A DNA stretch of 57,699 bases, taken from contig PNJE01000079.1 in NCBI GenBank assembly GCA_002877915.1, positions 1-57,699 on the forward strand. Direction: 5' to 3'. Below the pieces are notes generated by a model, which did not search any database, was not told where the DNA came from, and worked only from the letters and a program-made list of their open reading frames with translations. The DNA comes from Candidatus Aminicenantes bacterium. Its GTDB lineage: Bacteria > Acidobacteriota > Aminicenantia > Aminicenantales > Saccharicenantaceae. Both the position numbers and the translations under genes were made by a program. Shown piece after piece: positions 14,309 through 53,658 of the stretch (its first letter is position 1; every line of letters starts with the position of its first letter).

Positions 14309-14324
14309 GAAAGCTAAATGAGCG

Positions 14325-14682
14325 TGTTCCACAATAATCAAAATCAGACCTTAGGTAAAAAACATAAGTAGACTAAAAGTAGACGTTAGGGGGAGCGTCT
14401 GTGGTAGAACCGAGATCAGAGAGGATGTTCTGCCACGATGAAAAATCAACTTCATAAGTGCTTACCATTGGAGTGTATTAGAGACAGGAATTTTAGCTTC
14501 CAGAGAAGGCGGTACAAGTTAAGAGAGCTGGCAAGCGATAAAATTACCGTGGCCCTTATTCCAAAAAAGAAACTTTATGTCCTGAAAAATAATCGGAAAG
14601 TAGCCGAGTTCCCGATATAGATTTTCCCCTGACGTCTACTTTTGATCTTTACAAAATGTCAACTTTTGATTTTTACGGAAAA
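14325..14682. mobile_element. Non-autonomous IS remnant/MITE (IS481/IS1202-ISNCY-like ends) carrying a transposase C-terminal fragment
   Basis: 17/18-bp inverted repeat AAAAGTAGACGTTAGGGG (14375-14392) / CCCCTGACGTCTACTTTT (14626-14643). Weaker IR homology extends to TGTTCC (14325) and GGAAAA (14682), with repeated (C)AAAAGT(A/T)GAC subterminal motifs. Confidence 0.65.
14438..14620 (+). pseudogene. Fragment resembling the C-terminal beta domain of a DDE transposase
   Basis: RDRNFSFQRRRYKL...ITVALIP...LYVLKNNRKVAEFPI lies between the inverted repeats, and its stop is 5 bp from the right IR. The family assignment is by eye. Confidence 0.45.
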
Positions 14683-14746
14683 CTGCAAGTAGGAAGCCGT
14701 TGAAAAATCTGATTATATGTTATATAAGATTATTTCAGGAGGAAAA

Positions 14747-14962
14747 ATGGAAAAAGAATTTACCTCGGTTTCTATTCCTACTTCGCTTTATAAGAAAATT
14801 GAAGAAAAAATAAAAGGAACGGAGATTAGCTCGGTTTCCAGCTATGTTACCAAGGTTTTAAGAGAAAGCTTATCCAAAGATGAAGAGAATAAGGAGGTCT
14901 TCACGGCTGAAGAAGAAGAAAAAATCAAGGAAAAGTTAAAAGCCCTGGGATACATAGACTGA
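14747..14962 (+). CDS. Ribbon-helix-helix (CopG-like) small protein with an EEEEKIKEKLKALGYID tail
   Basis: AGGAGG SD before ATG 14747; beta-strand TSVSIP followed by two helices (SLYKKIEEK, SVSSYVTKVLRESL). Confidence 0.8.
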   Translation: MEKEFTSVSIPTSLYKKIEEKIKGTEISSVSSYVTKVLRESLSKDEENKEVFTAEEEEKIKEKLKALGYID

Positions 14963-15002
14963 CCTGTCTTTCGCTTTTTTTGACCCTCGGAAGGAGAAAA
15001 TT

Positions 15003-16151
15003 ATGATTGCCCCACATGGTGGTCGCTTAGTTAATCGGCTTCTGCCTGAAAATAAAAAAGAAGAAGTTTTGGAAAAATTGAAATACCTGCCGACTATAAT
15101 TATCGATTCGGACGTTGTTTCTGAGGTAGAAAATATCGGCACGGGGGTTTATTCACCACTGGAAGGATTTTTGAATAAACCCGATTTTGATGGCGTTTTG
15201 AGCCAGATGAGGCTCAGTAATGACCTGCCTTGGACCATTCCAATTATCCTGGATGTCGATTCCGAGATGGCCGGAAAAATTAAAATTGGTCAGGAATTAG
15301 CCTTGCTGGACGAAAGCCGCCACCCGGTAGCAATTCTAACAGTCGAAGATAAATACACTTATGATCGGGAAGATTTAGTTAAAAAAGTTTTCGGGACAGA
15401 TGATCCGCGGCATCCGGGAGTGGCTCAGGTCTTTAAAATGAAAGATGTTCTTCTGGGTGGCAAAATTGACCTGATAGAGCTTCTTCCCACTCCTTACGAT
15501 CGGTATCGTTTATCTCCAAAAGAAACCAGGATTCTTTTCAAGGAGAAAGGGTGGAGGACAGTGGTTGGTTTTCAAACCAGAAACACACCTCACCTTGGTC
15601 ATGAATATGTGCAAAAGACCGCTTTGACTTTCACTGATGGCCTGTTTATAAATCCAGTAATCGGTCGGAAAAAAAAGGGTGATTTTAAAGACGAAGTAAT
15701 TCTGGCCTCATATGAAGAGTTGATTAAACATTATTACCTTAAAGATCGAGCGGTCATGGCTATCCTGAAAATGGAGATGCGCTATGCCGGACCTCGGGAG
15801 GCTATTCACCATGCGATCATCCGCAAAAATTTTGGTTGCACTCATATAATTATCGGCCGGGATCATGCTGGGGTCGGCAATTATTATCCTCCTTATGCCG
15901 CCCAGGAAATCTTTGAAGAATTCCCGGACCTGGGAATTGTGCCTCTTTTTTTTAAATCGTTTTTTTTCTGCAAAAAATGCAATTCCATTGAGAATGAAAA
16001 GACCTGCCCTCATGACCCATCCAACCATGTTCAGTTTTCTGGCACCAGAATCAGAGATCTTTTGTTAAAGGGAGAAGTGCCACCGCCAGAGCTGATGCGG
16101 CCAGAAGTGGCTAAGATTATCCTGTCATTTTCTAATCCTTTTAATGATTAG
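15003..16151 (+). CDS. sat: Sulfate adenylyltransferase (Sat-type ATP sulfurylase)
   Basis: PHGGRLVNR, SPLEGF, FQTRNTPHLGHEY, MRYAGPREA, GRDHAGVG, and Zn-site CKKC...CPH. Confidence 0.96.
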   Translation: MIAPHGGRLVNRLLPENKKEEVLEKLKYLPTIIIDSDVVSEVENIGTGVYSPLEGFLNKPDFDGVLSQMRLSNDLPWTIPIILDVDSEMAGKIKIGQELALLDESRHPVAILTVEDKYTYDREDLVKKVFGTDDPRHPGVAQVFKMKDVLLGGKIDLIELLPTPYDRYRLSPKETRILFKEKGWRTVVGFQTRNTPHLGHEYVQKTALTFTDGLFINPVIGRKKKGDFKDEVILASYEELIKHYYLKDRAVMAILKMEMRYAGPREAIHHAIIRKNFGCTHIIIGRDHAGVGNYYPPYAAQEIFEEFPDLGIVPLFFKSFFFCKKCNSIENEKTCPHDPSNHVQFSGTRIRDLLLKGEVPPPELMRPEVAKIILSFSNPFND

Positions 16152-16191
16152 GCTGATTATAAAAATAAAATTTTAGAGAAAGGCTACTGAT

Positions 16192-17577
16192 TTGAACAAA
16201 ACTGATAAAGGAAAAAGGCTTCTGGTAATTGGTCTCGATTGTGCTCCGCCGAGCTTGGTTTTTGATCGAGCTTCAGAGCTGCCCAACCTTAAAAAATTGA
16301 TGGATGGCGGAATTTGGGGAAAGCTCCGCAGCAGCGATCCCCCGATTACTATTCCCGCCTGGATGGTTATGGCTACCGGACGGGACCCTGGCCGCCTTGG
16401 GCTTTATGGCTTCAGGCATCGCCGTGGTTATGATTACAGCAAGATGTGGATAGCCAATTCCACCGCCATCAAGGAAAAGGCAGTTTGGGATTATCTCGGG
16501 GAACAGGGGAAAGAAAGCATTCTGGTTAGCGTTCCACCGAGCTATCCACCTCGACCGGTCGTTGGAAAGCTTATCTCCTGCTTTATAACTCCTTCCAAAG
16601 AGCAGTCCTACACCTTTCCTCCAGAACTTCGAACTGAAATAGAAAAGCGTTTTGGAGGCTTTATTTTCGACGTGGTCTTTCGCACCCAGGATCGGGCTCA
16701 AGTACTTAAAGAAATTTACCAGATGACCGAAAATCACTTCCAGGTGGTAAATTATCTTCTTGAAGATGAAAACTGGAGGCTATTCTGGCTGGTGGAAATT
16801 GGCGTTGATCGGATGCATCATGCCTTCTGGAAATTTATGGACAAAAATCACCATCTTTATCAGCCTGGTAATCCCTTTGAGTCGGCCATTTATGATTACT
16901 ACAAATTTCTCGATGACCACATTGGCCGGTTGTTGGAAAAGATAGATGACAGGACGGCCGTTTTAATTGTCTCTGACCATGGGGCCAAGGGAATGAAAGG
17001 GGCTTTTTGCGTGAATGATTGGTTGATTGCCCAGGGAGACTTGGTGATAACCGAACCACCTCAGCGAGGTCAAAGTATTGATCAAATTAAAATCGATTGG
17101 AGCAAAACTAAAGCCTGGGGGTGGGGAGGATATTATGCCCGTATTTTCTTGAATGTTGAGGGCCGGGAACCACAGGGAATAATAAAACCTGAAGATTATG
17201 AAGCCTACCGAGATGACCTGGTTTACCGGCTTAAAGAGATCAAAGGACCAAACGGAGAAAAATGGAATACCGTGGTCATTAAGCCTCAGGAACATTACCC
17301 GGAACTCAATGGAGAATATCCTGACCTGATGGTTTATTTTGATGATTTATACTGGCGTTCAGCCGGAACTCTTGGTTATGGTACTTTATATCTACAGGAA
17401 AATGATACTGGTCCCGATGATGCGGTTCATGATTACGATGGAATCTATATCCTGTATGATCCGGAAAACACTGCTCACCGGCAGAAAAATGCCAACATTC
17501 TGGATATTGCTCCTACCATTCTCCACCTGTTGGATGGACCGGAGGTTCCCGGGCTTAGAGGTCGGATTATCGAGTGA
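16192..17577 (+). CDS. Type I phosphodiesterase/nucleotide pyrophosphatase-like alkaline phosphatase superfamily protein (cytoplasmic)
   Basis: GLDCA, PPITIPAW (Thr nucleophile region), GVDRMHH, VSDHG and DIAPTIL; no signal peptide. Confidence 0.85.
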   Translation: MNKTDKGKRLLVIGLDCAPPSLVFDRASELPNLKKLMDGGIWGKLRSSDPPITIPAWMVMATGRDPGRLGLYGFRHRRGYDYSKMWIANSTAIKEKAVWDYLGEQGKESILVSVPPSYPPRPVVGKLISCFITPSKEQSYTFPPELRTEIEKRFGGFIFDVVFRTQDRAQVLKEIYQMTENHFQVVNYLLEDENWRLFWLVEIGVDRMHHAFWKFMDKNHHLYQPGNPFESAIYDYYKFLDDHIGRLLEKIDDRTAVLIVSDHGAKGMKGAFCVNDWLIAQGDLVITEPPQRGQSIDQIKIDWSKTKAWGWGGYYARIFLNVEGREPQGIIKPEDYEAYRDDLVYRLKEIKGPNGEKWNTVVIKPQEHYPELNGEYPDLMVYFDDLYWRSAGTLGYGTLYLQENDTGPDDAVHDYDGIYILYDPENTAHRQKNANILDIAPTILHLLDGPEVPGLRGRIIE

Positions 17578-17683
17578 ATTTCAGGCAGTGGATAGGTCAG
17601 GCCTGAGGATGGGCCTGATTAGAATAAAAACTTAAAAATCGAAGTTATTAACCCCAAGGTAAATTGGAAAAAGGAGACCGCAG

Positions 17684-18229
17684 ATGTGTCAGGAACAAAA
17701 AGGTTTTACCCTTTGGTTCACCGGATTACCCTGTTCGGGTAAATCCGCTGTGGCTGATCGGGTGGCCGAAATCCTCCGTTCTCGGAATTTAAAAGTGGAA
17801 CGACTGGACGGAGATATTGTTCGTAAGAGTCTTTGCCGTGACCTGGGCTTTTCCCGCGAGCATCGTAACGAAAATATCAGGCGGGTGACTTTTGTGGCTA
17901 AGCTCTTGACCAGAAATGGCGTGGCGGTTCTAACCTCTTTTATTTCACCCTACCGAGAAATTCGGGATGAAGCCCGTCGGGAAATAGGAGAATTCATTGA
18001 GGTTTATGTAAAGTGTCCGCTGGAAGTGTGTATGGCCAGGGATGTCAAGGGAATGTATCAAAAAGCTATCAAGGGGGAAATTAAGGAATTTACCGGTATT
18101 TCTGATCCTTATGAAGAACCTCTTCAGCCAGAATTAGTCCTGGAAACCGATAAGGAAACTCTGGAAGAAAGCGCTCAAAAGGTCATTAATTGCCTGAAAA
18201 AGCTCGGTTATCTGGACCATAATTTTTAG
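17684..18229 (+). CDS. cysC: Adenylyl-sulfate (APS) kinase
   Basis: WFTGLPCSGKS, LDGDIVR, DLGFS, FISPYR, RDVKGMY and FTGISDPYEEP. Confidence 0.96.
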   Translation: MCQEQKGFTLWFTGLPCSGKSAVADRVAEILRSRNLKVERLDGDIVRKSLCRDLGFSREHRNENIRRVTFVAKLLTRNGVAVLTSFISPYREIRDEARREIGEFIEVYVKCPLEVCMARDVKGMYQKAIKGEIKEFTGISDPYEEPLQPELVLETDKETLEESAQKVINCLKKLGYLDHNF

Positions 18230-18237
18230 GGTTGCTC

Positions 18238-19191
18238 ATGCCTGAATATCAGAATTATTTAGTAACGGGAGGGGCTGGATTTATCGGCTCTCATCTGGTT
18301 GAAACTCTGGTCAGACGTGGCTGCCGGGTAAGGGTGCTGGACAATTTTTCTTCCGGAAAGGAAGAAAATCTAAAAGACTTTATTGACCGGATTGAACTCA
18401 TCAGGGGAGATATCAGAGACCGAAAGCTTTGTCTTAGAGCTAGCCGGGGAATGGAGGTTATCTTACACCAGGCCGCCCTGGCTTCCGTACCACGTTCGGT
18501 GGCTGAGCCATTAGTTGCCCACGAAATAAACCTTACTGGTACTCTGAACCTCCTTCTGGCGGCCTCCGAAGCCAAGGTTAAAAGTTTAGTTTTTGCTTCC
18601 TCTTCGGCTGTTTATGGTGATGACCCTGTTTTTCCCAAGAAGGAAGAGAGTCTGGGTAAGCCCCTTTCACCCTACGCCGCTCAAAAACTGGCTTCAGAAA
18701 AATATATTCAGGTTTTTAGCCTCCTTTATGGCTTTAATGCTGTTTGCCTGCGCTATTTTAATGTTTTTGGCCCGAGGCAGGATCCTCATTCTCAATATGC
18801 TGCTGCCATTCCCATTTTTATTACCAGGATGCTGGCGGGGAATCCTCCAATCATCTTTGGGGATGGCCAGCAATCCCGGGATTTTATTTACGTTGAAAAT
18901 GTTGTCAAAGCCACCCTCCTGGCTGCTGAAGCCGAAGGTTTCAGGGGTGAGGCCTTCAATATAGGTTCAGGCAGCCGAATAACGATTAATGAATTGGCGG
19001 ATAAAATTAATTCTTGCTTAAATCTATCTTTAAAACCTGTTTATGCCGAGCCTCGAGCGGGTGACATCAAGGAATCTTACGCCGATATCAGCCGAGCGGA
19101 AAAATTCCTTGGTTTTAAGCCCGAAATTGATTTTCTTAATGGTTTAAAATTGACTATAGAATGGTACAAAAAGGAGTCGAATAAATTGTAA
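18238..19191 (+). CDS. NAD-dependent NDP-sugar epimerase/dehydratase (WbpP/GalE-like SDR)
   Basis: TGGAGFIGSH, YAAQK (YxxxK), LRYFNVFGPRQDP and GDGQQSRDF. Confidence 0.92.
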   Translation: MPEYQNYLVTGGAGFIGSHLVETLVRRGCRVRVLDNFSSGKEENLKDFIDRIELIRGDIRDRKLCLRASRGMEVILHQAALASVPRSVAEPLVAHEINLTGTLNLLLAASEAKVKSLVFASSSAVYGDDPVFPKKEESLGKPLSPYAAQKLASEKYIQVFSLLYGFNAVCLRYFNVFGPRQDPHSQYAAAIPIFITRMLAGNPPIIFGDGQQSRDFIYVENVVKATLLAAEAEGFRGEAFNIGSGSRITINELADKINSCLNLSLKPVYAEPRAGDIKESYADISRAEKFLGFKPEIDFLNGLKLTIEWYKKESNKL

Positions 19192-44544: not shown

Positions 44545-45850
44545 ATGGCTAATTTGCTGGTTATTGGAACTCAGTGGGGAGATGAGGGTAAAGGTAAAAT
44601 TGTAGATTTTCTGGCTCCGGCTTTTGAAATTATTGCCCGGTATCAGGGCGGACATAATGCCGGTCACACAGTATATTTATCAGGAAAGAAAATTGTTCTT
44701 CATTTGATTCCCTCGGGTATTCTCCATCCAGATAAAATCTGTGTCATCGGCAATGGTCTGGTGCTGAGCCCCCAGGCTTTTTTCAAAGAAATTGAGGATT
44801 TGAAGTGCTTGGGGATTGAAGTTACCCCCAAAAGATTAGTGGTCAGCCGGGCTGCTCAGGTTATAATGCCATATCATCCGCTGATGGAAAAAATCAGCGA
44901 GCAGTTGAGAGGCAAAAAAATGATTGGGACCACCTGTCGGGGGATAGGTCCATGCTATGAAGATAAGGCCTCCCGCTGGGGGATAAGAGTGGCTGATCTT
45001 TTAGAACCGGAAGTCCTTCTGGAAAAAATAGAAGATAACCTTATGGCCAAAAATAAAATTCTGGAGGCCTTCGGCTATGCTCCTTTGAAGGCGGCTGACA
45101 TATTCTCTGAATACCGGGACCTGGGCGAAAGACTGGCTCCTTATGTTCAGGATACTTCAGTTTATCTTATGAAAATGATTAAATCTGGCCAATCGATTCT
45201 TTACGAAGGGGCTCAGGGTTCACTTCTGGATATTGACCACGGTACCTTTCCATTTGTTACTTCCTCTTCCTGTACCGCCGGGGGTGTGTGCACTGGCCTC
45301 GGCCTCAGCCCAAAGCAAATAAATTATGTTTTGGGAATTACCAAAGCTTATACCACCAGAGTCGGAAGTGGTCCTTTCCCGACTGAACTCAAGGATGAAG
45401 TTGGGGCTCTGATTGCCAGTAAGGGTGATGAATTTGGGGCGACCACCGGGCTGGTTCGATGCCGTGGCTGTTCGATCGGCCATCCGCATTAATGGAGTAG
45501 ACTCGCTGGCTCTGACCAAGCCTGATGTGCTGGAAGGTTTAAAGGAAATTAAAGCCTGCTTTGCTTATCGCTACAAAGGATCCAGATTAGATGAATTTCC
45601 CTCTGAGCCATGGATTCTGGAAAGAGTCGAGCCTGAATATCGGAGCTTTCCGCTCTGGTCAGGTAGCCTCCACCGGTTGAGAGAGCCAGAACAGCTACCG
45701 TCTGGTTTTAAAGATTACCTTAGTTGGCTGGAGGATGTCCTGGAGACCAAGGTGGCCCTGATTTCCACCGGGGTAGATCGCCAGGATATGATTTACCGGA
45801 AAGAAGAACTTCAAAAAATGCTCGGTCCAAAGGCGGAAAAACTTTTTTAA
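44545..45850 (+). pseudogene. purA: Adenylosuccinate synthetase, frameshifted near 45450
   Basis: The 5' frame (44545) has GTQWGDEGKGK, GGHNAGHT and YTTRVGSGPFPTE...EFGATTG. The 3' frame continues GWFDAVA...TKPDVL...STG to 45850. The RPRRC-type motif between them is absent. Confidence 0.88.
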
Positions 45851-47037: not shown

Positions 47038-47331
47038 AAGCCTGAAACAAAATCCTAAGCAAGACCTAAATTGATTTTTTGGGGTGGGCTGGAAATTCAG
47101 CTTAAACGGCGTGGCTGATGATGAGAACCTCGGGAATTTAAATTTTTTTCCTGGGAGAAGGAGTTTGGGCAGTGCAGTTATTGAGAAATAGAGAATTTTA
47201 TTAATCGATTAATTTTTAAAAGATAGACCCGGATTTAAAATAAGCGGCTGCGGTCAGCAGAAACAATGGGAAGGTAAGCTTAAAAATTAATTTGGTTGAA
47301 TAATAAGTTAATCAAAAGTTATAATTTTTAT

Positions 47332-50300
47332 ATGGGATTAACCGAGGGACCAAAGAAAAAAAAGTTTGTCCGAAAAATCTTTAAAATCCTGGCCTGGACG
47401 ACTGGTATTGCGGCTATCATTATTCTTTCAGTTGCTTTATTGCTGGAAACCAGAATGGCTGGGAAAATAATCTTGAAGATGGCCGGGAAAATTTTAAACC
47501 AGCAAGCTGGATTGATAGTCAAGGCAGAAAGTGTCCAGCTGAATATTTTTAAACTTCAGGCTTCTATTAAAGGTCTTGAAGTTCGGCCAACAGAAAAGAG
47601 CCAGTTACCGCTGAATTATTTTTCCTGTCAAAAAGTTTTACTGCGCTCTGGTTGGAAATCAATAACCGGCCAAAGTCTTTACCTAAAAGACCTGGAAGTT
47701 ATCGGACCTAAAATCTACCTGAAATCGACTGCCGGCAAAGAAGAAAAAATAAAAACGGCTGATAAATCTGGTAGGAAATCTCCCCAAAAATTTAAGTTTC
47801 GTCTCGATAATCTGGAGATAAAAGAGGCCTTATTTTCGTTTCAGGATATGAACCAGGCAATTTCTGCCAGTGTTTCTGGAGTGGAGATAAAAGTTCTTTA
47901 TCAGCCGGCCAGTGGATGGCACCAAGCCTGGATGCATACCTCCTTAGGAATATTTGAAATTGGGTCTGCCCGTAAGATTTTAAAGAGCCTGGATCTGGAG
48001 GCGGACTTTAATTCCACCCAGATAAACCTAAGGAAATTTTACCTGAGCACGGCCCAAACGAATCTCAACCTGGCAGGTGAAATAAAAGATTACCTGAGGG
48101 AGGCTAAACTGGCTTTAAATTTTTCCGGAAAGGTAAATCTGGATGAGTTTAATGACCTGGTTAAAAGTCCGGAAAAAAGTTCTGGCGATTTAAACTTTAA
48201 TTTCAAACTTATTGGAAAACTGCCAGATATAAGCTTAGCGGGAGAGTTAGAGGGGACAGCCCTATCCATTAATGGGATTAATCCGGTTGATATTAACCTG
48301 GCCGTAAAACCGGTGGACAAATCTAACGAACTGGTTGAGGGCCTGATTAAAATGCCAACTGGACAAATATCGCTTAAGGCAAAATTGCTGTCAGATTTTA
48401 GGGGACCGTTCCAATCTCAACTGATCCTGAACAGGATTGATTTAAGCCAGCTTTCATCTATTTCCCCCCGATTTCCTTTTATTCTAAATTCGGTTTTAAC
48501 TGGAAAAGTGGAAGTTAGCGGGACGGAATTATCTCCAAAAAAAATCAGGGCGAAGATTGAATGGCAATCAAGCCCGATAGAGAAAAGTTTTTCTGCCAGT
48601 GGAACCCGAGCGTTTGTGCCTATCATATCTGAGATTAAGGCTTTTTATGCCCCGGGAAAATTGGAAATTCAAAATTTATCCCTCAAAGTTTTTCAGACTG
48701 ATTTTAATTTTAAAGGGGTTCTTACTGATGGAGATAAAATTACTGGGCGCCTGCTCCTTAATCTGCCCGATATTGGGGTGGTCAGGGCAAATCTTTTATC
48801 TTCTGGTCTGAACGACATTTTTCCTAGGGTTAATTCCAGGCTAAATAAATTGGGCGATTTGAAAGGTCGACTGCGGCTGGAAGGTGAGTTCCGTGGTTCT
48901 CTCAAGCGCCCTGAGTTGGACCTGGCTTTAAAAGGCGATAATTTTTCTTTAAGAAAAGTTTTTGTTCCCCGGCTGGAAATCTCGTTATCCGGAACCCCCG
49001 ATCAGATGAAAATCCAGGAATTTGTGGTTGAGTTTGACCGCGGACGGATAGAGGGTTCTGGCGAGCTTTTAGTACAGGAAAAAGTCAGTTCTTACCCCTA
49101 TAAATTTGAAGGCCAGATAGCCTTTTCAAAGATTGATCTTGGCCAATTTAATGAACTTCTCCCTAAAGACGGTCATCAGAATCTAAATGGTTTCTTATCG
49201 GGTCTGGTAAAGATGAAGGGGAGCCCATCTTTTCCATCCATTGACTTCGGCTTGAGCTTAGACCAGCTTTCCTATGGCCACCAGGGAATTGATTCTTTGG
49301 AAATAGCCGGCAGCTATCAAAACGAAATTCTTCGAGTGGAAAAATTATTAATGATCAAAGCTGAAAGTCAATTGGCTGGCCATTTTATTTTTATTCATAA
49401 AACTGGAGAATTACAGGCAGATTTGAACGCTGAGAATTTTAAAGCTGACTTTCTAAAAGCTTGGGTCCCGGCAATTCGGTCAGGTCAAATTGATTTTCAT
49501 CTTAAGAGCTCGGGATTATGGAAATCTCCAGTTCTTGATTTTCAACTCGTCGGCCAGGGAGTAATGATAGAAAGAATCTGGCTGCCATATTTCGAGCTAA
49601 AAATTTCAGGAGATGGCCAGAGAGGGCAGGCGCAACTGGAAGTTCCTCTCTTTAACCTAAGTCTCGAAGCTGGACTCGAATTTAATAGCCCTTACTGGTT
49701 GAAAGGACAGGCCAGGATTAAGCAAATGCCCCTGTCCTTACTTGCGGGCCTCAGGCCAGAAGTTGAAGAAGTCCCACCAGAAGTAGCCTTAAACTTAAAG
49801 GCCGATTTCTCTCTGCCGTTAGAAGATCTGGCCAAACTCCAGGCCCAGCTGAAATTTGAAGATTTTGACTTTAAAGGATTGGCAACCTTGGTGCCATCTT
49901 TAAAAAATCTAAACCCCGGGGGAAAGGCTGATGGTCAGATCACGATTAATGGATTTTCTCCTGATCTTTCTCGGGTCCAGATCTTAGCTGAAATTCCGAA
50001 TCTAAATTTGAGGCTCAATGATCTGGAGGTAAAAAACGACTTCCCCTTGAAATTGGCCTGGGAAGATGGAGACTTGAAAATTCTGGATTTTAATCTTTCG
50101 ACCGGAAAATCAAGGCTCAAGCTTTCTGGGCATTCTCGAATCAAGAACTTTCAGAATCCGGAACTTGATTTTTCTCTCTGGAGTGATTTGGAAATTTCAG
50201 ATTTCAATCCCTGGCTGACAGGTTTAAGTGCCGGTGGCCGGTTTCAACTCCAGGCTGATTTAAAAGGAGATCGGCAAAATCCCCTGGTGGAGGGGAAAGG

Positions 50301-53300
50301 GGATTTCAAGGAAATTTTTGTTCGATTTTTAGATCTGCCCATTTTGGTCAGCAATGTTAATGGACTTATCGAAGTTGATAATTCCAAAATCAGGCTAAAA
50401 CAGTTCAACGGCCGAGCCAACTCGGGCGATTTTGCCAGCTCAGGAGAAGCCTTTTTTGGCCCGGCTTTTAGCCTGGAGTCAGCTAAGATTGATTTTAATC
50501 TTAATGATTTTGATTTTAATTATCAGGGGCTTTCCACCCTATCCAAAGCCAGGTTGAACTTGAACCGGAATAAACAGGGCTGGCTGCTAAGCGGGGATCT
50601 TTCGGTTTTAAGCGCTAACTATAGACAGGATTTTTTCCCCAGCACTCAAGGCCTGAAAATGGCTTTGACCAGGGTTTCGCCGGTAGGGACAGAAATTCCG
50701 CCTTTTCTTTATGAGGTGGCTCTTGATGTCAATGTGCAGACGATAGAAAACATAATTATCAAAAACAACTTGGCTGACCTGGAACTTAAAGCCAACCTCA
50801 AAGCTAAAGGGACGGTGCCGGCTCCCATTTTATCAGGCCGGATAGAAAATGCTTACCCAGGGGAGATCGTTATTGGAGAGCGTCGATACTCAGTGGAAAG
50901 AATGCAGATTGATTTTCTGGGGAAAGAAAATCTTGAGCCTAATTTAGATATCTCTCTTAAGAGTAACGTTACCGACCAGGAAGAAGAAGTAGAAGTGAAC
51001 GTTAATCTTTCCGGGACTCCTTCCGAACTTAAGTTTTCCCTGAGTTCAACTCCAACCCGCTCTCAAGAAGACCTGGCTGCTCTGCTGCTTACTGGGAAAA
51101 GCCTGAAAGAAGTTCAGGGCTCGGCGGTCAATACCATCAGTTCTCAGCTAATCCAGCAATTTTCCAGTCCTCTAACTTCTCCCGTCACCAGAACATTGAA
51201 AAAATGGCTTAAAGCGGAGGATGTTATCCTTGAGCCTTTAAACATTGCTACCCTCCAGGATCCGGGTGCCCGGCTGACTATTAAGAAAAGGATGACCAGG
51301 GAAGTGGCTGTTACCTATTCCATTAATTTAGCCAACAGCCAGTATCAGACCTGGATTCTGGATTATAACCTCAGACGTAACTTTTCTTTGAGAGGTTTCC
51401 GTCAGGACGATGGCACGGTCGGCCTTAACTTAAGGCATAGATTCTCCTTAGGCCATAAAACATCAGAATTGGGGGTTAAAGAAGAGGTCCCGAGAAAGAT
51501 ATTAAAACAGGTTGAAATAAAAGGGGAGGCAGTTATCTCTCCAGACGAAGCCAAGAAAATTTTAAATCTTAAAACTGGAAAGCAATTTAATAATTTCAAA
51601 GTCCAGAAGTCCTTAGAACGATTGGCTTCATGGTATAGAAAAAAAGGTTATGCCAATGCTCGTTTTGAAACCAGAAAAGAAGAAACCGGAGAGGCTGTTT
51701 CCTTATCGATTTCTATTGATGCTGGTCGGCCGGTGGAATTTCGATTCGAGGGAGATCGACTTCCAGCCCGTCTGAGAAAGAAAGCTTTGAATTCCTGGGT
51801 AAATCGCCTGCCAGAGGAAGCTAACTTAAGTCAGCTTCAGCAGATGGTGCTTCTTGAACTTGAACGGCGTGGTTATTACCAGTCAGTGGTTAACGTCCGG
51901 AAAATGGAAGAAAATAATAAAATTATTTATCTGACCGAAGTAAGAACGGGAGGAAAATGGAAAATAAAGAGCTTCCGACTTGAGGGTCACCCAGTTTTTA
52001 AGGAGTCGCTTATCAGGCGGGTGGTTTCCAATTACTTTGGAGCCAAAGCCAGCGGTTTGTGGAACTTGATCTATGACCGCCGGGTAGCCCTGGAACTCAT
52101 TCAGTATTTTTACTTAGAAAACGGTTACCTTCAGGCGAGGATAGAATCCCCGCTGGTAAAAGAAAATTCAGGAAAAAGGGAACTGAATTTAAGTTTAAAA
52201 ATAGAAGCTGGTCCTCAGAGCCATGTCCGTTCTATCAAGTTTGAGGGCTATAAAGCAAAAACTGAATCCGAACTCGAAAAGATATTGACCCTAAAACCGG
52301 GAAGTATATTTAGCTGGCCAGCTCTCACTGAAAATAAAACTGCTCTTATCAATTATTATCGGAGTGCTGGTTTTAAAGAAGTGAAGGTAGAAAGCCGGGC
52401 CGAGCCGGTCGAGGGAAGCCCTGATTACCAGGTAGTTTTTATTCTGGAAGAGGGTCAGCCGTTTCTTGTGTCCGAAGTGGAAATTTCCGGTGTCAGGCGC
52501 ACCCGGCCATCGTTTATCCTTAAAGAATCTGGACTAAAGTTAGGAGAACCGGTCAGCCTGGAAAGAATGGCCCAGGCTCAGAAAAACCTCTATGATTCCG
52601 GCGTTTTCCAGATGGTTAATATGAGCTCGGCCCCAGAGGCTTCTCAATCGCTACGGGAAAAAATATTAATCCAGGTCAAGGAACAACCCTGGATGACTCT
52701 GACTTATGGCCTTCAGTACAATAGCGAAACTAAGTTTGAAGGCTTCACTCAGTTTGATTTTAATAACCTTTTCGGCTGGGGCTGGAATAGCCTTCTTTTC
52801 TTAAGAGCCAATAAGAGGCAGCAGGAGGCCAGATATTCTCTAAAAGTACCGTTTATTTTTTCCAGGAAAACTAATTCCTTGCTTTCTTTTTATTATTTAA
52901 AAGATATCAAGGACCTATATATTACCGAGCAGATAGGTACCAGCTTCCAACAAAAGATCTCTGTCGTCCGGGGTTTCGATGTCAGCTGGGTTTATAAACT
53001 TAACCGCATACATGATTATGAGCCGACCCCGTCGTGGCCATTTCCATATGATGTCAGGGTATTAACCTCAGAAATTTCAATTTTGGTCAACCGGGATACC
53101 CGTGATGATCAGTTTGATCCGCACCGTGGTTCATTGCTTACTGCTAACTTCAGCTATTCTCCGAGATTTCTTGGTTCACAGCTAAATTATATCAGCACCT
53201 TCACTCAATTTACTATGTATAAGACCATTGTTCCCGGATTGCTCTGGGCGTCCTGCTATCGCCTGGGGTTGGCCAGTGCTTTTGGGGAAGTGTTAATTCC

Positions 53301-53658
53301 CAGTAAAAGGTTTTTTGCTGGCGGTGGAACCAGCATCCGGGGTTTTAAACTGGATGCCGTTGGCCCGGTTGATATCTGGACAGGATTGCCCGAAGGGGGA
53401 GAAGCCATGCTGGTAATTAACCAGGAATTGCGTTTCCCTATATACAAAATTTTTAAGGGAGTAGCTTTTTTTGATGCTGGAAATGTTTATTCCCGGCTTG
53501 GAGATTTTAATCCTGCTCGCCTGAGAACCGGGGCAGGTCTGGGACTCCGGATTGAAAGCCCCATTGGTTTGATAAGAGCCGATTACGGTTTTAACCTTAA
53601 GCCCCGGCCGGGCGAACCTAAAAGCACCATCTTTTTCAGTCTGGGCCAGGCTTTTTAA
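47332..53658 (+). CDS. Fused TamB/AsmA-like periplasmic bridge (DUF490) + POTRA domains + Omp85/TamA beta-barrel
   Basis: N-terminal TM anchor; ~1300 aa of AsmA-like beta repeats ending in DUF490-like 'LSSTPTRSQEDLAALLLTG'; several POTRA 'Y...GY..A' motifs; barrel motifs FFAGGGTSIRGF, ELRFPI, GLRIESPIGLIRADYG and C-terminal FFSLGQAF. The ORF track starts at TTG 47296; ATG 47332 is preferred. Confidence 0.85.
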   Translation: MGLTEGPKKKKFVRKIFKILAWTTGIAAIIILSVALLLETRMAGKIILKMAGKILNQQAGLIVKAESVQLNIFKLQASIKGLEVRPTEKSQLPLNYFSCQKVLLRSGWKSITGQSLYLKDLEVIGPKIYLKSTAGKEEKIKTADKSGRKSPQKFKFRLDNLEIKEALFSFQDMNQAISASVSGVEIKVLYQPASGWHQAWMHTSLGIFEIGSARKILKSLDLEADFNSTQINLRKFYLSTAQTNLNLAGEIKDYLREAKLALNFSGKVNLDEFNDLVKSPEKSSGDLNFNFKLIGKLPDISLAGELEGTALSINGINPVDINLAVKPVDKSNELVEGLIKMPTGQISLKAKLLSDFRGPFQSQLILNRIDLSQLSSISPRFPFILNSVLTGKVEVSGTELSPKKIRAKIEWQSSPIEKSFSASGTRAFVPIISEIKAFYAPGKLEIQNLSLKVFQTDFNFKGVLTDGDKITGRLLLNLPDIGVVRANLLSSGLNDIFPRVNSRLNKLGDLKGRLRLEGEFRGSLKRPELDLALKGDNFSLRKVFVPRLEISLSGTPDQMKIQEFVVEFDRGRIEGSGELLVQEKVSSYPYKFEGQIAFSKIDLGQFNELLPKDGHQNLNGFLSGLVKMKGSPSFPSIDFGLSLDQLSYGHQGIDSLEIAGSYQNEILRVEKLLMIKAESQLAGHFIFIHKTGELQADLNAENFKADFLKAWVPAIRSGQIDFHLKSSGLWKSPVLDFQLVGQGVMIERIWLPYFELKISGDGQRGQAQLEVPLFNLSLEAGLEFNSPYWLKGQARIKQMPLSLLAGLRPEVEEVPPEVALNLKADFSLPLEDLAKLQAQLKFEDFDFKGLATLVPSLKNLNPGGKADGQITINGFSPDLSRVQILAEIPNLNLRLNDLEVKNDFPLKLAWEDGDLKILDFNLSTGKSRLKLSGHSRIKNFQNPELDFSLWSDLEISDFNPWLTGLSAGGRFQLQADLKGDRQNPLVEGKGDFKEIFVRFLDLPILVSNVNGLIEVDNSKIRLKQFNGRANSGDFASSGEAFFGPAFSLESAKIDFNLNDFDFNYQGLSTLSKARLNLNRNKQGWLLSGDLSVLSANYRQDFFPSTQGLKMALTRVSPVGTEIPPFLYEVALDVNVQTIENIIIKNNLADLELKANLKAKGTVPAPILSGRIENAYPGEIVIGERRYSVERMQIDFLGKENLEPNLDISLKSNVTDQEEEVEVNVNLSGTPSELKFSLSSTPTRSQEDLAALLLTGKSLKEVQGSAVNTISSQLIQQFSSPLTSPVTRTLKKWLKAEDVILEPLNIATLQDPGARLTIKKRMTREVAVTYSINLANSQYQTWILDYNLRRNFSLRGFRQDDGTVGLNLRHRFSLGHKTSELGVKEEVPRKILKQVEIKGEAVISPDEAKKILNLKTGKQFNNFKVQKSLERLASWYRKKGYANARFETRKEETGEAVSLSISIDAGRPVEFRFEGDRLPARLRKKALNSWVNRLPEEANLSQLQQMVLLELERRGYYQSVVNVRKMEENNKIIYLTEVRTGGKWKIKSFRLEGHPVFKESLIRRVVSNYFGAKASGLWNLIYDRRVALELIQYFYLENGYLQARIESPLVKENSGKRELNLSLKIEAGPQSHVRSIKFEGYKAKTESELEKILTLKPGSIFSWPALTENKTALINYYRSAGFKEVKVESRAEPVEGSPDYQVVFILEEGQPFLVSEVEISGVRRTRPSFILKESGLKLGEPVSLERMAQAQKNLYDSGVFQMVNMSSAPEASQSLREKILIQVKEQPWMTLTYGLQYNSETKFEGFTQFDFNNLFGWGWNSLLFLRANKRQQEARYSLKVPFIFSRKTNSLLSFYYLKDIKDLYITEQIGTSFQQKISVVRGFDVSWVYKLNRIHDYEPTPSWPFPYDVRVLTSEISILVNRDTRDDQFDPHRGSLLTANFSYSPRFLGSQLNYISTFTQFTMYKTIVPGLLWASCYRLGLASAFGEVLIPSKRFFAGGGTSIRGFKLDAVGPVDIWTGLPEGGEAMLVINQELRFPIYKIFKGVAFFDAGNVYSRLGDFNPARLRTGAGLGLRIESPIGLIRADYGFNLKPRPGEPKSTIFFSLGQAF

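Follow-up and report, generated by a model that had tools for sequence, protein, structure and literature searches.

The five co-oriented genes at 14747–19191 of the window (the whole 57,699-nt stretch of Candidatus Aminicenantes DNA analysed here) were a bacterial copy of the PAPS cassette described in heat-loving archaea, and thus the cassette itself was not new. In the reading that we prefer, at about even odds (ca. 0.5), its NPP-type alkaline-phosphatase-superfamily (AlkP) enzyme removes PPi, and the tail of an RHH-like regulator docks in this enzyme. Sat would convert sulfate and ATP into APS and PPi, the AlkP would hydrolyse PPi via a two-metal site and Thr53 and so pull the unfavourable Sat reaction forward, and CysC would phosphorylate APS to PAPS. 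The small RHH-like protein would be the regulator of the cassette, its LGY tail docking in the AlkP catalytic cleft so that, as pseudosubstrate or sensor, it couples regulation to the occupancy of the enzyme. In the lineage of the window, where the epimerase is translationally coupled to cysC, this coupling suggests that PAPS would feed glycan sulfation by some further enzyme. Both the meaning of the docking, which comes from a structural model, and this destination of PAPS are what we infer. A PPi-removing role would correct a repeated temptation to name AlkP the missing sulfotransferase.

Gene content and neighbourhood of the cassette

ORF, Pfam and NCBIfam scans of the window located all five co-oriented genes of the earlier note (small protein, sat, AlkP, cysC and epimerase) on the + strand. 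The features were:

14700..14728, + strand: putative promoter-like element of the first gene, function inferred (TTGAAA at 14700–14705, TGTTATATAA at 14718–14727)
14747..14962, + strand: RHH-like (CopG-type) protein, 71 aa (ATG at 14747 after AGGAGG at 14737–14742; length as in homologues)
14900..14959, + strand: C-terminal tail of this protein, residues 52–71, FTAEEEEKIKEKLKALGYID, motif …RLxxLGY[IL][DE]
15003..16151, + strand: sat, sulfate adenylyltransferase (ATP sulfurylase; PUA_2 + ATP-sulfurylase; NF003166, 525 bits, cut-off 387)
16192..17577, + strand: cytoplasmic NPP-type AlkP-superfamily enzyme, TTG start (PF01663, 156.3 bits, cut-off 23)
17597..17618, + strand: 7-bp inverted repeat, TCAGGCC ... 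GGCCTGA, in the 106-nt AlkP–cysC spacer, read from the sequence
17684..18229, + strand: cysC, adenylyl-sulfate (APS) kinase (NF002059, 253 bits, cut-off 244)
18232..19191, + strand: SDR NDP-sugar epimerase/dehydratase (top NCBIfam match TviC-like, under its cut-off)

Successive genes were separated by 40, 40, 106 and 2 nt, and the flanking genes (phoH upstream; hypE, hypD and hypC downstream) were on the opposite strand. The promoter-like columns TTGAAA and TGTTATATAA showed no variation when the window was aligned with five close relatives. No second sat was found in the genome. That the operon makes PAPS, as had been proposed, was supported by the profile matches identifying sat and cysC.

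Neighbourhoods were compared by tblastn at 80 loci encoding AlkP relatives. The same-strand sat lay within 1.1 kb upstream of AlkP in 51 of them and the same-strand cysC within 500 nt downstream in 56, and 39 had the complete sat–AlkP–cysC order. One or both genes were found within 5 kb of AlkP in 70 of the 80 loci, several of the remainder ending at contig edges. This arrangement is far beyond chance and, with the gene fusions, bore out the tight and wide linkage that the earlier note had suggested. Among the long AlkP relatives, the best 120 of 216 matches were all Sat-AlkP fusions (PUA_2 + ATP-sulfurylase + Phosphodiest). Scanning of 14 long representatives also revealed CysC-AlkP, AlkP-pyruvate kinase-Sat, AlkP-pyruvate kinase, NTP_transferase-AlkP and AlkP-GT2 fusions. 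PPi is the common product of Sat and NTP transferases.

AlkP relatives formed 2820 protein clusters at E ≤ 1e-30, and the cassette was present in at least 595 confirmed matches in species-representative genomes. It ranged over Aminicenantes, Chloroflexota, Bathyarchaeia, Asgard archaea, Thermoplasmata and Thermococcales and was widespread among uncultured anaerobes.

The Thermococcales sulfate-activation cluster was reportedly described by Lee et al. in 2009, who are also said to have made the original TON_1705 assay. The Thermococcales cluster (TON_1704–1707; PYCH_17520–17570) shared with the window a copG-like RHH gene, ATP sulfurylase, NPP-type “pyrophosphatase” and APS kinase in the same order. 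It differed in that the window host is bacterial, in that the window cluster lacked the DHH pAp phosphatase and TauE genes, and in that an SDR sugar epimerase was appended to the window operon. In the available text of PMC8268124, the archaeal cassette is given as copG, ATP sulfurylase, (DHH pAp phosphatase), type I phosphodiesterase/nucleotide pyrophosphatase and APS kinase. The “unassigned pathway” of the earlier note therefore had to be given up, the cassette having been published, in the text available, for Thermococcus onnurineus and Pyrococcus yayanosii.

The NPP-type enzyme and its substrate

The AF2 model of the window AlkP (pLDDT 96) had an NPP fold, matching ENPP1 and Xac NPP in Foldseek at E of about 1e-17. 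D16, T53, D206, H210, D262, H263 and H413 were present, which we take, by motif position rather than by superposition, to be the NPP two-metal ligands and the nucleophile (Thr53). Among 41 relatives, none of the seven was retained in fewer than 37, T or S being counted at position 53 (D16 in 40, T53 as T in 32 and as S in 5, D206 in 39, H210 in 37, D262 in 37, H263 in 39 and H413 in 38). The fold (TM-score on query 0.55–0.61), the two-metal site and the Thr nucleophile were shared with Xanthomonas NPP and ENPP1, 3, 5 and 6, but identity to these was only 12–15%, and the window enzyme was about 80–90 residues longer than Xac NPP and ENPP6 (461 aa versus 380–393). Inspection of its N-terminus found no hydrophobic stretch, so it is cytoplasmic, whereas the NPPs are secreted; they act on nucleotides, whereas the substrate reported for the window enzyme's family is PPi.

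The window AlkP was 55% identical to a P. yayanosii protein over its full length (461 aligned positions). At locus L047, which comes from a Thermococcus MAG and has the cassette gene order, AlkP was 91% identical to this protein, which NCBI labels as P. yayanosii. These comparisons make the window AlkP an orthologue of PYCH_17550 in P. yayanosii and of TON_1705 in T. onnurineus, the latter assignment being made through gene order and the P. yayanosii protein, not by direct alignment. PYCH_17550 is described as a “type I phosphodiesterase/nucleotide pyrophosphatase” and speculated to degrade PPi in the portion of PMC8268124 available, and TON_1705 is named a pyrophosphatase within TON_1704–1707 in that of PMC4463584. 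Table 1 of PMC9653972, the part of that source used here, enters TON_1705, the single assayed family member, among the inorganic pyrophosphatases, with a pH optimum of 9.5, a kcat of 2.1 s-1 and a Km of 18.8 μM, and gives a kcat of about 3 × 10^4 s-1 for the family I PPase Ton1914. Because of the published cassette and the PPase activity of TON_1705, AlkP is best read as assisting ATP sulfurylase by removing PPi, rather than as a sugar sulfotransferase. For the window enzyme PPase activity would be taken over by analogy from the T. onnurineus member.

Against this assignment, the kcat of TON_1705 is so low next to that of Ton1914 that its PPase activity could be a side activity, and a family I PPase was also present in the genome of the window, so that a second PPase is not obviously needed. 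Fusions of PPase, APS kinase and ATP sulfurylase in eukaryotes were reportedly described by Patron et al. (2008). As far as the available text of PMC11210485 goes, APS kinase and ATP sulfurylase are joined to a soluble PPase in some eukaryotes, so that, as in the preferred reading, the enzyme that removes PPi is attached to the step of sulfate activation that forms it; the PPi-removing enzyme there is a family I PPase, unrelated to the NPP-type alkaline-phosphatase fold found here. Thermostable Sat/PPase/CysC modules are also useful in practice for supplying PAPS enzymatically.

The NPP fold, with its nearest structures binding AMP and other nucleotides, would also suit an enzyme that turns over the adenine nucleotides of the pathway, either as a CysQ-like safety valve (APS/PAPS to AMP/PAP and sulfate) or as a pAp phosphatase (pAp to AMP and Pi). 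Mammalian NPPs hydrolyse PAPS and APS, and no DHH or PHP gene was found among the ORFs of the window's cluster (14747–19191). Such turnover is nevertheless improbable, since it would be pointless to hydrolyse what the neighbouring Sat, often fused to AlkP, has just made and since the reported substrate is PPi. Moreover, pAp phosphatase candidates occurred together with AlkP in 12 of the 80 loci (DHH in eight, all titled archaeal MAGs, and PHP in four), and DHH enzymes of the cassette are reported as demonstrated pApases in the available text of PMC8268124. With separate candidates adjoining it, AlkP itself is unlikely to be the pAp phosphatase.

Sinks for PAPS

The earlier note had found neither a reductase nor a canonical sulfotransferase in the cluster, and for the families searched this held for the rest of the 92%-complete genome. 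PAPS reductase was not found in it (PAPS_reduct 21.4 bits, under the cut-off), and aprA, NIR_SIR, Sulfotransfer_1 and Sulfotransfer_3 had no match anywhere in it. This lack of a found PAPS consumer counts against the preferred reading. The authors of the Thermococcales study likewise found no known PAPS sink, according to the available text (PMC8268124).

Fifty cassette genomes gave a mixed picture: Sulfotransfer_3 matched in 18, Sulfotransfer_1 in 17, NIR_SIR in 12 (including Archaeoglobaceae and Geoglobus MAGs) and PAPS_reduct strongly in 15. By hand tally, a canonical sulfotransferase stood beside the cassette in 19 genomes (the union of both families), and no recognised PAPS consumer was seen in 16. 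Across these genomes the cassette accompanied all kinds of sink for PAPS or APS, and in a third of them, as in this one, no sink was recognised.

An AlkP that acts as a non-canonical sulfotransferase, passing the sulfo group of PAPS or APS via a sulfo-Thr53 to an NDP-sugar or an epimerase-supplied glycan, would account for genomes such as these. The same-operon pAp phosphatase candidates of archaea and some bacteria imply that PAPS is consumed; the AlkP-GT2 and NTP_transferase-AlkP fusions would also fit, as would the translational coupling of the epimerase to cysC. We consider this role highly improbable. The assayed orthologue, TON_1705, is reported as a PPase, the main fusion partner is Sat, which carries out the PPi-forming step, and not CysC (the best 120 of the 216 long forms), and the cassette coexists with canonical sulfotransferases and with NIR_SIR as counted above. 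An epimerase lay within 1 kb downstream in only 17 of the 80 loci, all close relatives of the window (records titled Aminicenantes, Saccharicenans or uncultured Eubacteriales), so that it is an add-on confined to these. No pointer was found to the sugar or glycan acceptor that the earlier note had drawn from the epimerase, the only ligand modelled in the AlkP cleft being a protein tail.

Precedent within the superfamily is of a different type. Agl30 and Agl31, AlkP-superfamily N-glycan sulfotransferases of Halobacterium salinarum, act in sulfation in vivo according to the available text of PMC11980604; such documented enzymes would by analogy count against a PPase helper. However, they are sulfatase-like (PF00884 type) with sulfatases as nearest structures in the text available, while the window AlkP was nearest to NPPs, a separation drawn without direct alignment, and reached only 24.6 bits against PF00884 (Sulfatase; cut-off 25) over residues 234–269 only. 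A Pfam scan of the window AlkP gave Phosphodiest and this sub-threshold Sulfatase match only, and no P-loop sulfotransferase domain. Nor are Agl30 and Agl31 reported next to sat or cysC in the portion available, and their sulfate donor is not given in the main text, where the word PAPS is absent (PMC11980604).

The tail of the small protein and the AlkP cleft

Homologues of the small protein were found as 46 ORFs in 45 of the 80 loci. Its RHH label, part of the earlier note, was weakly supported by sequence, though the small co-oriented gene itself was confirmed. The window's protein had no Pfam match, RHH_1 matched 3 of 32 relatives at E ≥ 0.0024, and NikR was a weak match (E 0.33 in a PDB profile search and 0.0032 in another search). 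The monomer was modelled as coil-helix-helix-linker-helix, with helices at 12–22 and 30–46 after an extended N-terminus. The 18 matches listed by Foldseek were mostly RHH repressors or antitoxins, all at E ≥ 0.96.

The C-terminal tail was conserved: L64, G68 and Y69 were invariant in 32 relatives, and the terminus always came one or two residues past the Tyr. In the genome of the window the motif was unique (one true case among 16052 open frames), and at least one tail-bearing protein was encoded in 66 of the 80 loci. The carriers were 44 RHH ORFs (the RHH tail also occurring at the Thermococcus locus L047), eight CysC, four long AlkP paralogues, two small c97 proteins, one sulfatase-like protein and the fusions P0140, P0244, P0406 and P0459. 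The window's CysC lacked the tail that some of its relatives carry, and 11 of 150 representatives of the AlkP family bore it themselves.

A complex of the tail with AlkP was predicted with a score of 0.75 (0.75, 0.62 and 0.79 in three runs), compared with 0.01 for the best control; when the tool was calibrated, 116 of 157 solved complexes and 2 of 215 mismatched pairs attained this mark. Contact agreement between runs was at least 71%, and partner pLDDT was at least 62. There is no solved relative, so the prediction was not taken over from a known structure. Tyr69 contacted I52, T53, G73–R75, G313 and Y314. The model, built without metals or donor, supports a position of the RHH tail inside the catalytic cleft of AlkP that brings the invariant Tyr up to Thr53, the catalytic residue. 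Neither the LGY tail nor its docking was described in the literature found on the Thermococcales cluster, as far as the available texts go.

A plain PPase would not need a protein tail in its cleft, and the modelled docking counts in this respect against a PPi-removing helper. The tail might instead be a client tag and the real AlkP substrate, its C-terminal Tyr being modified or demodified by O-sulfation from APS/PAPS, by phosphoryl transfer from PPi via a phospho-Thr53, or by removal of AMP; the measured PPase activity would then be a hydrolytic half-reaction or side reaction, consistent with the low kcat of the enzyme alone. Transfer of phosphate to alcohols is known from AP-superfamily enzymes, and venom phosphodiesterase, an enzyme of NPP type, takes AMP off tyrosine. 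The position of Tyr69, the invariant residues and fixed terminus, and the portability of the tail would all fit a substrate. We nevertheless regard this reading as unlikely: a pseudosubstrate or an inhibitor would account for the docked tail just as well, self-borne tails fit autoinhibition better than a carrier role, and the transfer geometry comes from a model holding neither metals nor donor. Were it true, sulfate activation would be coupled to regulation by a Tyr-modification switch, or the tail would be a protein-bound aryl-sulfate donor or carrier.

The predicted docking may reflect either a switch in which enzyme and regulator together sense a metabolite or a protein modification of a new kind. 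PutA-type enzymes carry an RHH DNA-binding module and a catalytic domain in one polypeptide. Their coupling of such a module to the state of an enzyme resembles the arrangement proposed here, in which, unlike PutA, separate proteins would be linked by the modelled docking tail. The PutA RHH domain was among the weak Foldseek matches of the small protein.

The sulfate-activation cluster and its archaeal counterpart

Five co-oriented genes, separated by intergenic gaps of 40, 40, 106 and 2 nt, were identified in the window as follows.

14747–14962, + strand: 71-aa RHH-like protein, with ATG at 14747 after AGGAGG at 14737–14742
15003–16151, + strand: sat (ATP sulfurylase), containing PUA_2 and ATP-sulfurylase domains (NF003166, 525 bits; cut-off 387)
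16192–17577, + strand: AlkP, an alkaline-phosphatase-superfamily protein of 461 aa (PF01663, 156 bits; cut-off 23)
17684–18229, + strand: cysC (APS kinase)
18232–19191, + strand: SDR epimerase (top NCBIfam match TviC-like, under cut-off)

The neighbours on the opposite strand were phoH upstream and hypE, hypD and hypC downstream, and the remainder of the window consisted of housekeeping genes. The co-oriented five-gene cluster at 14747–19191 proposed in the earlier note was thus borne out, all of its genes being present by Pfam/NCBIfam matches.

The AlkP N-terminus had no hydrophobic stretch, indicating that the protein is cytoplasmic. Its AF2 model (mean pLDDT 96) was nearest to solved NPP folds (ENPP1, 3, 5 and 6 and a Xanthomonas NPP), with TM-scores of 0.55–0.61 on the query and 12–15% identity; a sequence search of the PDB with AlkP returned nothing at E ≤ 0.01. 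Conservation of the presumed metal ligands and of the nucleophile Thr53 among 41 aligned relatives predicts that AlkP is an active hydrolase or transferase.

A similar cluster has been described in Pyrococcus yayanosii, comprising a putative copG, ATP sulfurylase, a DHH pAp phosphatase, PYCH_17550 and APS kinase with tauE adjoining; PYCH_17550 was named a "type I phosphodiesterase/nucleotide pyrophosphatase" and speculated to degrade PPi, and the authors noted that neither a sulfotransferase nor a sulfite-reducing enzyme had been identified in that organism (PMC8268124). For Thermococcus onnurineus, a paper citing Lee et al. 2009 assigned APS kinase to TON_1704, pyrophosphatase to TON_1705, PAP phosphatase to TON_1706 and ATP sulfurylase to TON_1707 (PMC4463584). 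TON_1705 was tabulated with a pH optimum of 9.5, kcat of 2.1 s-1, Km of 18.8 μM and kcat/Km of 0.11 × 10^6 (PMC9653972, Table 1). The passages found of a 2024 review of microbial PPases did not mention an NPP-type PPase, and noted that other organisms have a fusion of PPase with APS kinase and ATP sulfurylase (PMC11210485). The literature was also searched for AlkP-type sulfotransferases encoded beside PAPS-synthesis genes, and nothing on the AlkP family came up beyond the papers cited here.

One related locus, from a Thermococcus MAG, had the exact P. yayanosii order (RHH, sat, DHH, AlkP, cysC, TauE). Its AlkP was 91% identical to a protein assigned by NCBI to P. yayanosii, which in turn was 55% identical to the window AlkP over the full length. 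The Thermococcales cluster and the window shared copG/RHH, sat, AlkP and cysC, whereas the window alone was bacterial and epimerase-linked. The earlier note had taken the cluster for an unassigned pathway; that claim did not stand, since the module was already published for archaea and the AlkP-type enzyme already had an assigned activity. The window cassette is thus a further member of a known system, in a bacterial, epimerase-linked version.

Linkage and fusions of AlkP, and the fate of PAPS

At E ≤ 0.001 the AlkP family comprised 13236 representative proteins, of which 2820 remained at the stricter limit of E ≤ 1e-30. A related-locus search with a 12-sequence AlkP alignment gave at least 595 confirmed matches, and 80 loci from Aminicenantes, many archaeal lineages, Chloroflexota, Verrucomicrobiota and others were retained, their neighbour genes being called by tblastn. 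The closest relatives of AlkP carried the source names Aminicenantes, Saccharicenans or Acidobacteriota. sat lay upstream on the same strand within 1.1 kb in 51 of the 80 loci, cysC downstream within 500 nt in 56, and the complete sat-AlkP-cysC order was found in 39. Linkage to sat/cysC, for which the earlier note had proposed a neighbourhood survey, was confirmed, one or the other gene lying within 5 kb of AlkP in 70/80 loci. The cluster is a real and very widely conserved module.

Ten loci had neither sat nor cysC. Three of them (L028, L079 and L084) were cut near the gene, and in the rest AlkP had glycosyltransferase genes or different neighbours, in records with the titles Verrucomicrobia/Chthoniobacterales, Actinomycetes or Thermoleophilia; also among these were L036 from an alkane-degrading archaeon and L017, a close relative with RHH-AlkP-epimerase only. 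Three Verrucomicrobia/Chthoniobacterales MAG loci (L077, L079 and L085), with sat and cysC both absent within 10 kb, were of glycan type and contained a GT2 gene (L077 and L085), an AlkP orthologue without the C-terminal LGY tail described below, a GHMP kinase resembling heptose-7-phosphate kinase (L077 and L085), a longer LGY-tailed AlkP paralogue and a GT4 gene, in that order.

Other genes accompanied the cassette less often: a DHH gene between sat and AlkP in 8/80 loci (all archaeal MAGs), TauE in four, a PHP gene in four (top NCBIfam match 3′,5′-nucleoside bisphosphate phosphatase, under cut-off) and PhoU/TrkA_C genes in three. A role of AlkP itself as pAp phosphatase was rejected, as DHH or PHP candidates for that role co-occurred with it.

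As to fusions, 14 long representatives examined with Pfam included Sat-AlkP, CysC-AlkP, AlkP-pyruvate kinase-Sat, AlkP-pyruvate kinase, NTP_transferase-AlkP and AlkP-GT2 types. A search for longer proteins gave 216 matches, of which the best 120 (about 820–1170 aa, 47–53% identity to the window AlkP) all had the PUA_2, ATP-sulfurylase and Phosphodiest domains, indicating that among these AlkP was tied above all to Sat, the PPi-releasing step. Two representatives, P0197 and P0244, combined the AlkP domain with a pyruvate-kinase barrel, P0197 having Sat as well; this pyruvate-kinase domain may regenerate ATP.

The earlier note had suggested that AlkP may transfer the sulfo group to a sugar or glycan, and had proposed searching the remaining genome for cysH, aprAB and sulfotransferases. 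The assembly (2.55 Mb, 187 contigs, 92% complete; the window is contig C69) contained sat in single copy. Across the whole 92%-complete assembly, PAPS_reduct gave a single match of 21.4 bits, under cut-off, and aprA, NIR_SIR, Sulfotransfer_1 and Sulfotransfer_3 were not found; the Sulfotransfer_2, Sulfotransfer_4 and Stf0 profiles had no match here or in 14 control genomes and were uninformative. No recognised PAPS consumer was found in this incomplete assembly, and the missing PAPS sink, together with the precedent of Agl30 and Agl31, sulfatase-like N-glycan sulfotransferases of Halobacterium salinarum (PMC11980604), favoured a sugar sulfotransferase.

Against this stood the survey of PAPS sinks in the whole genomes of the 50 of 80 loci with sat and/or cysC beside AlkP. 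PAPS_reduct exceeded the cut-off in 29/50 genomes (in only 15 at E ≤ 1e-20, many of these being open frames of about 630–690 aa from archaeal MAGs), Sulfotransfer_3 was found in 18, Sulfotransfer_1 in 17 at E ≤ 0.001 (over cut-off in 16), and NIR_SIR in 12, including Archaeoglobaceae and Geoglobus MAGs. By a hand tally counting only strong PAPS_reduct matches, 16/50 had none of the four sinks, among them the six nearest relatives sampled (G001–G004, G009 and G024); all of these were MAGs, making the absence soft. The cassette thus occurred alongside each type of sink as well as in genomes lacking all of them, a distribution more in keeping with an accessory enzyme of sulfate activation than with one dedicated to sulfo transfer. 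Moreover, the epimerase followed cysC in only 17/80 loci, all close relatives (UDP-glucose/GDP-mannose dehydrogenase genes then came after it in 9 of the 17). With canonical sulfotransferases coexisting, a lineage-restricted epimerase link, a fusion pattern dominated by Sat and an orthologue listed as pyrophosphatase (PMC9653972), sulfo transfer by AlkP to a sugar or glycan was disfavoured and is very improbable.

Eight sulfatase-family (PF00884) genes were also present in this genome, on contigs C78, C142, C51, C12 and C140. The three proteins on C78 had twin-arginine-type N-termini, with a CxPSR motif in two, and look like exported sulfatases by these features. Of the other five (625–798 aa), at least four had hydrophobic, membrane-anchor-like N-termini (the C140 copy lay at a contig edge, where its N-terminus could not be judged) and CxPSR was missing in four; these five are candidates for Agl30-like transferases. 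A cytosolic Agl31-type protein was sought among the eight by inspection of N-termini, and none was clearly cytosolic.

The RHH tail and a proposed role for AlkP

In an alignment of the small proteins, the N-terminal half was RHH-like and was followed by an acidic linker and a strongly conserved C-terminus (the tail), …[FY][ST]xEEEExxKxRLxxLGY[IL][DE], in which L64, G68 and Y69 were invariant among 32 sequences. The motif was also found on eight CysC proteins, four long AlkP paralogues, one sulfatase-like protein, two small proteins of sat-AlkP-PHP loci (titled delta proteobacterium and Thermodesulfobacteriota) and fusions of the CysC-AlkP (P0140), AlkP-pyruvate kinase (P0244) and Sat-AlkP (P0406 and P0459) types. 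It was carried by 11/150 representative family members, and 66/80 loci had at least one tail-bearing frame. In this genome 3 of 16052 open frames fitted the pattern, but the tail motif occurred once, on the RHH protein, the acidic context being missing from the two further matches. Nothing on this tail in connection with RHH proteins and sulfate activation came up in a literature search.

A complex was predicted from the AlkP alignment and residues 40–71 of the RHH alignment. The AlkP-tail pair scored 0.75 (0.75, 0.62 and 0.79 in three runs), versus 0.01 for the best of three controls; in the calibration of the method, which is only rough for custom alignments, the mark was reached by 116/157 solved complexes and 2/215 mismatched pairs. 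At least 71% of contacts agreed among runs, and partner pLDDT was at least 62. In the model, which contained no metals or substrates, tail helix 55–67 lay on an AlkP groove of residues 74, 87, 132 and 134, and Tyr69 contacted I52, T53 (the nucleophile), G73–R75, G313 and Y314; H210, D160, 389–393 and D409 were further interface residues. The model supports binding of the tail in the AlkP cleft, and a cleft shaped to take up such a tail would point to a function beyond PPi hydrolysis.

We give a probability of about one half to a reading in which the cassette would make PAPS, AlkP would remove PPi and so pull Sat, the RHH protein would regulate the operon, and its tail would act as a pseudosubstrate or sensor by docking in the cleft of AlkP. 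Three observations favoured PPi removal: a published assay of the orthologue, the prevalence of Sat among the fusion partners, and a fusion of AlkP to an enzyme of a second PPi-forming class. The estimate was held at this level because of the low kcat, a second PPase in the same genome (family I, on contig C122) and the cleft holding a protein tail. The main rival, that the tail tyrosine is a true substrate or carrier, was considered unlikely, and a nucleotide-turnover enzyme highly unlikely.

Upstream and spacer DNA, and other genes of the genome

Upstream of the RHH gene, a TTGAAA … TGTTATATAA element and the RBS were invariant in an alignment of the window and five relatives; in a generic promoter/terminator scan, sites were no more numerous than in shuffled sequence. 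Two 19-nt direct repeats (14634–14652 and 14658–14676) were dropped as operators, being unconserved in five close relatives. Both fell in the right arm of imperfect 50-nt inverted repeats (14324–14373 and 14634–14683, 74% complementary) between phoH and the RHH gene, which enclosed a 60-aa ORF (14438–14620). The entire 14324–14683 sequence was absent from five close relatives by alignment and may be a small inserted element. The AlkP-cysC spacer contained a 7-bp inverted repeat (TCAGGCC/GGCCTGA, 8-nt loop, 17597–17618), which may form a processing or attenuation hairpin.

Three tandem PF01663 paralogues of 666, 744 and 432 aa were located elsewhere in the genome (contig C18, 4777–10284), 27–34% identical to the window AlkP over matched segments. 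They adjoined thioredoxin-like and aminotransferase genes and had no LGY tail; lacking a sulfur-activation context, they were rejected as sulfur-pathway enzymes.

Within the window, purA (adenylosuccinate synthetase, 44545–45850) was split into two overlapping ORFs, 44545–45492 and 45413–45850, matching profile positions 2–300 and 301–416, by a frameshift or an assembly error. A single 2120-aa ORF (47296–53658) contained DUF748, TamB, POTRA repeats and an Omp85 barrel and, judged by these domains, is a TamB-TamA/BamA-like fusion in a single polypeptide.
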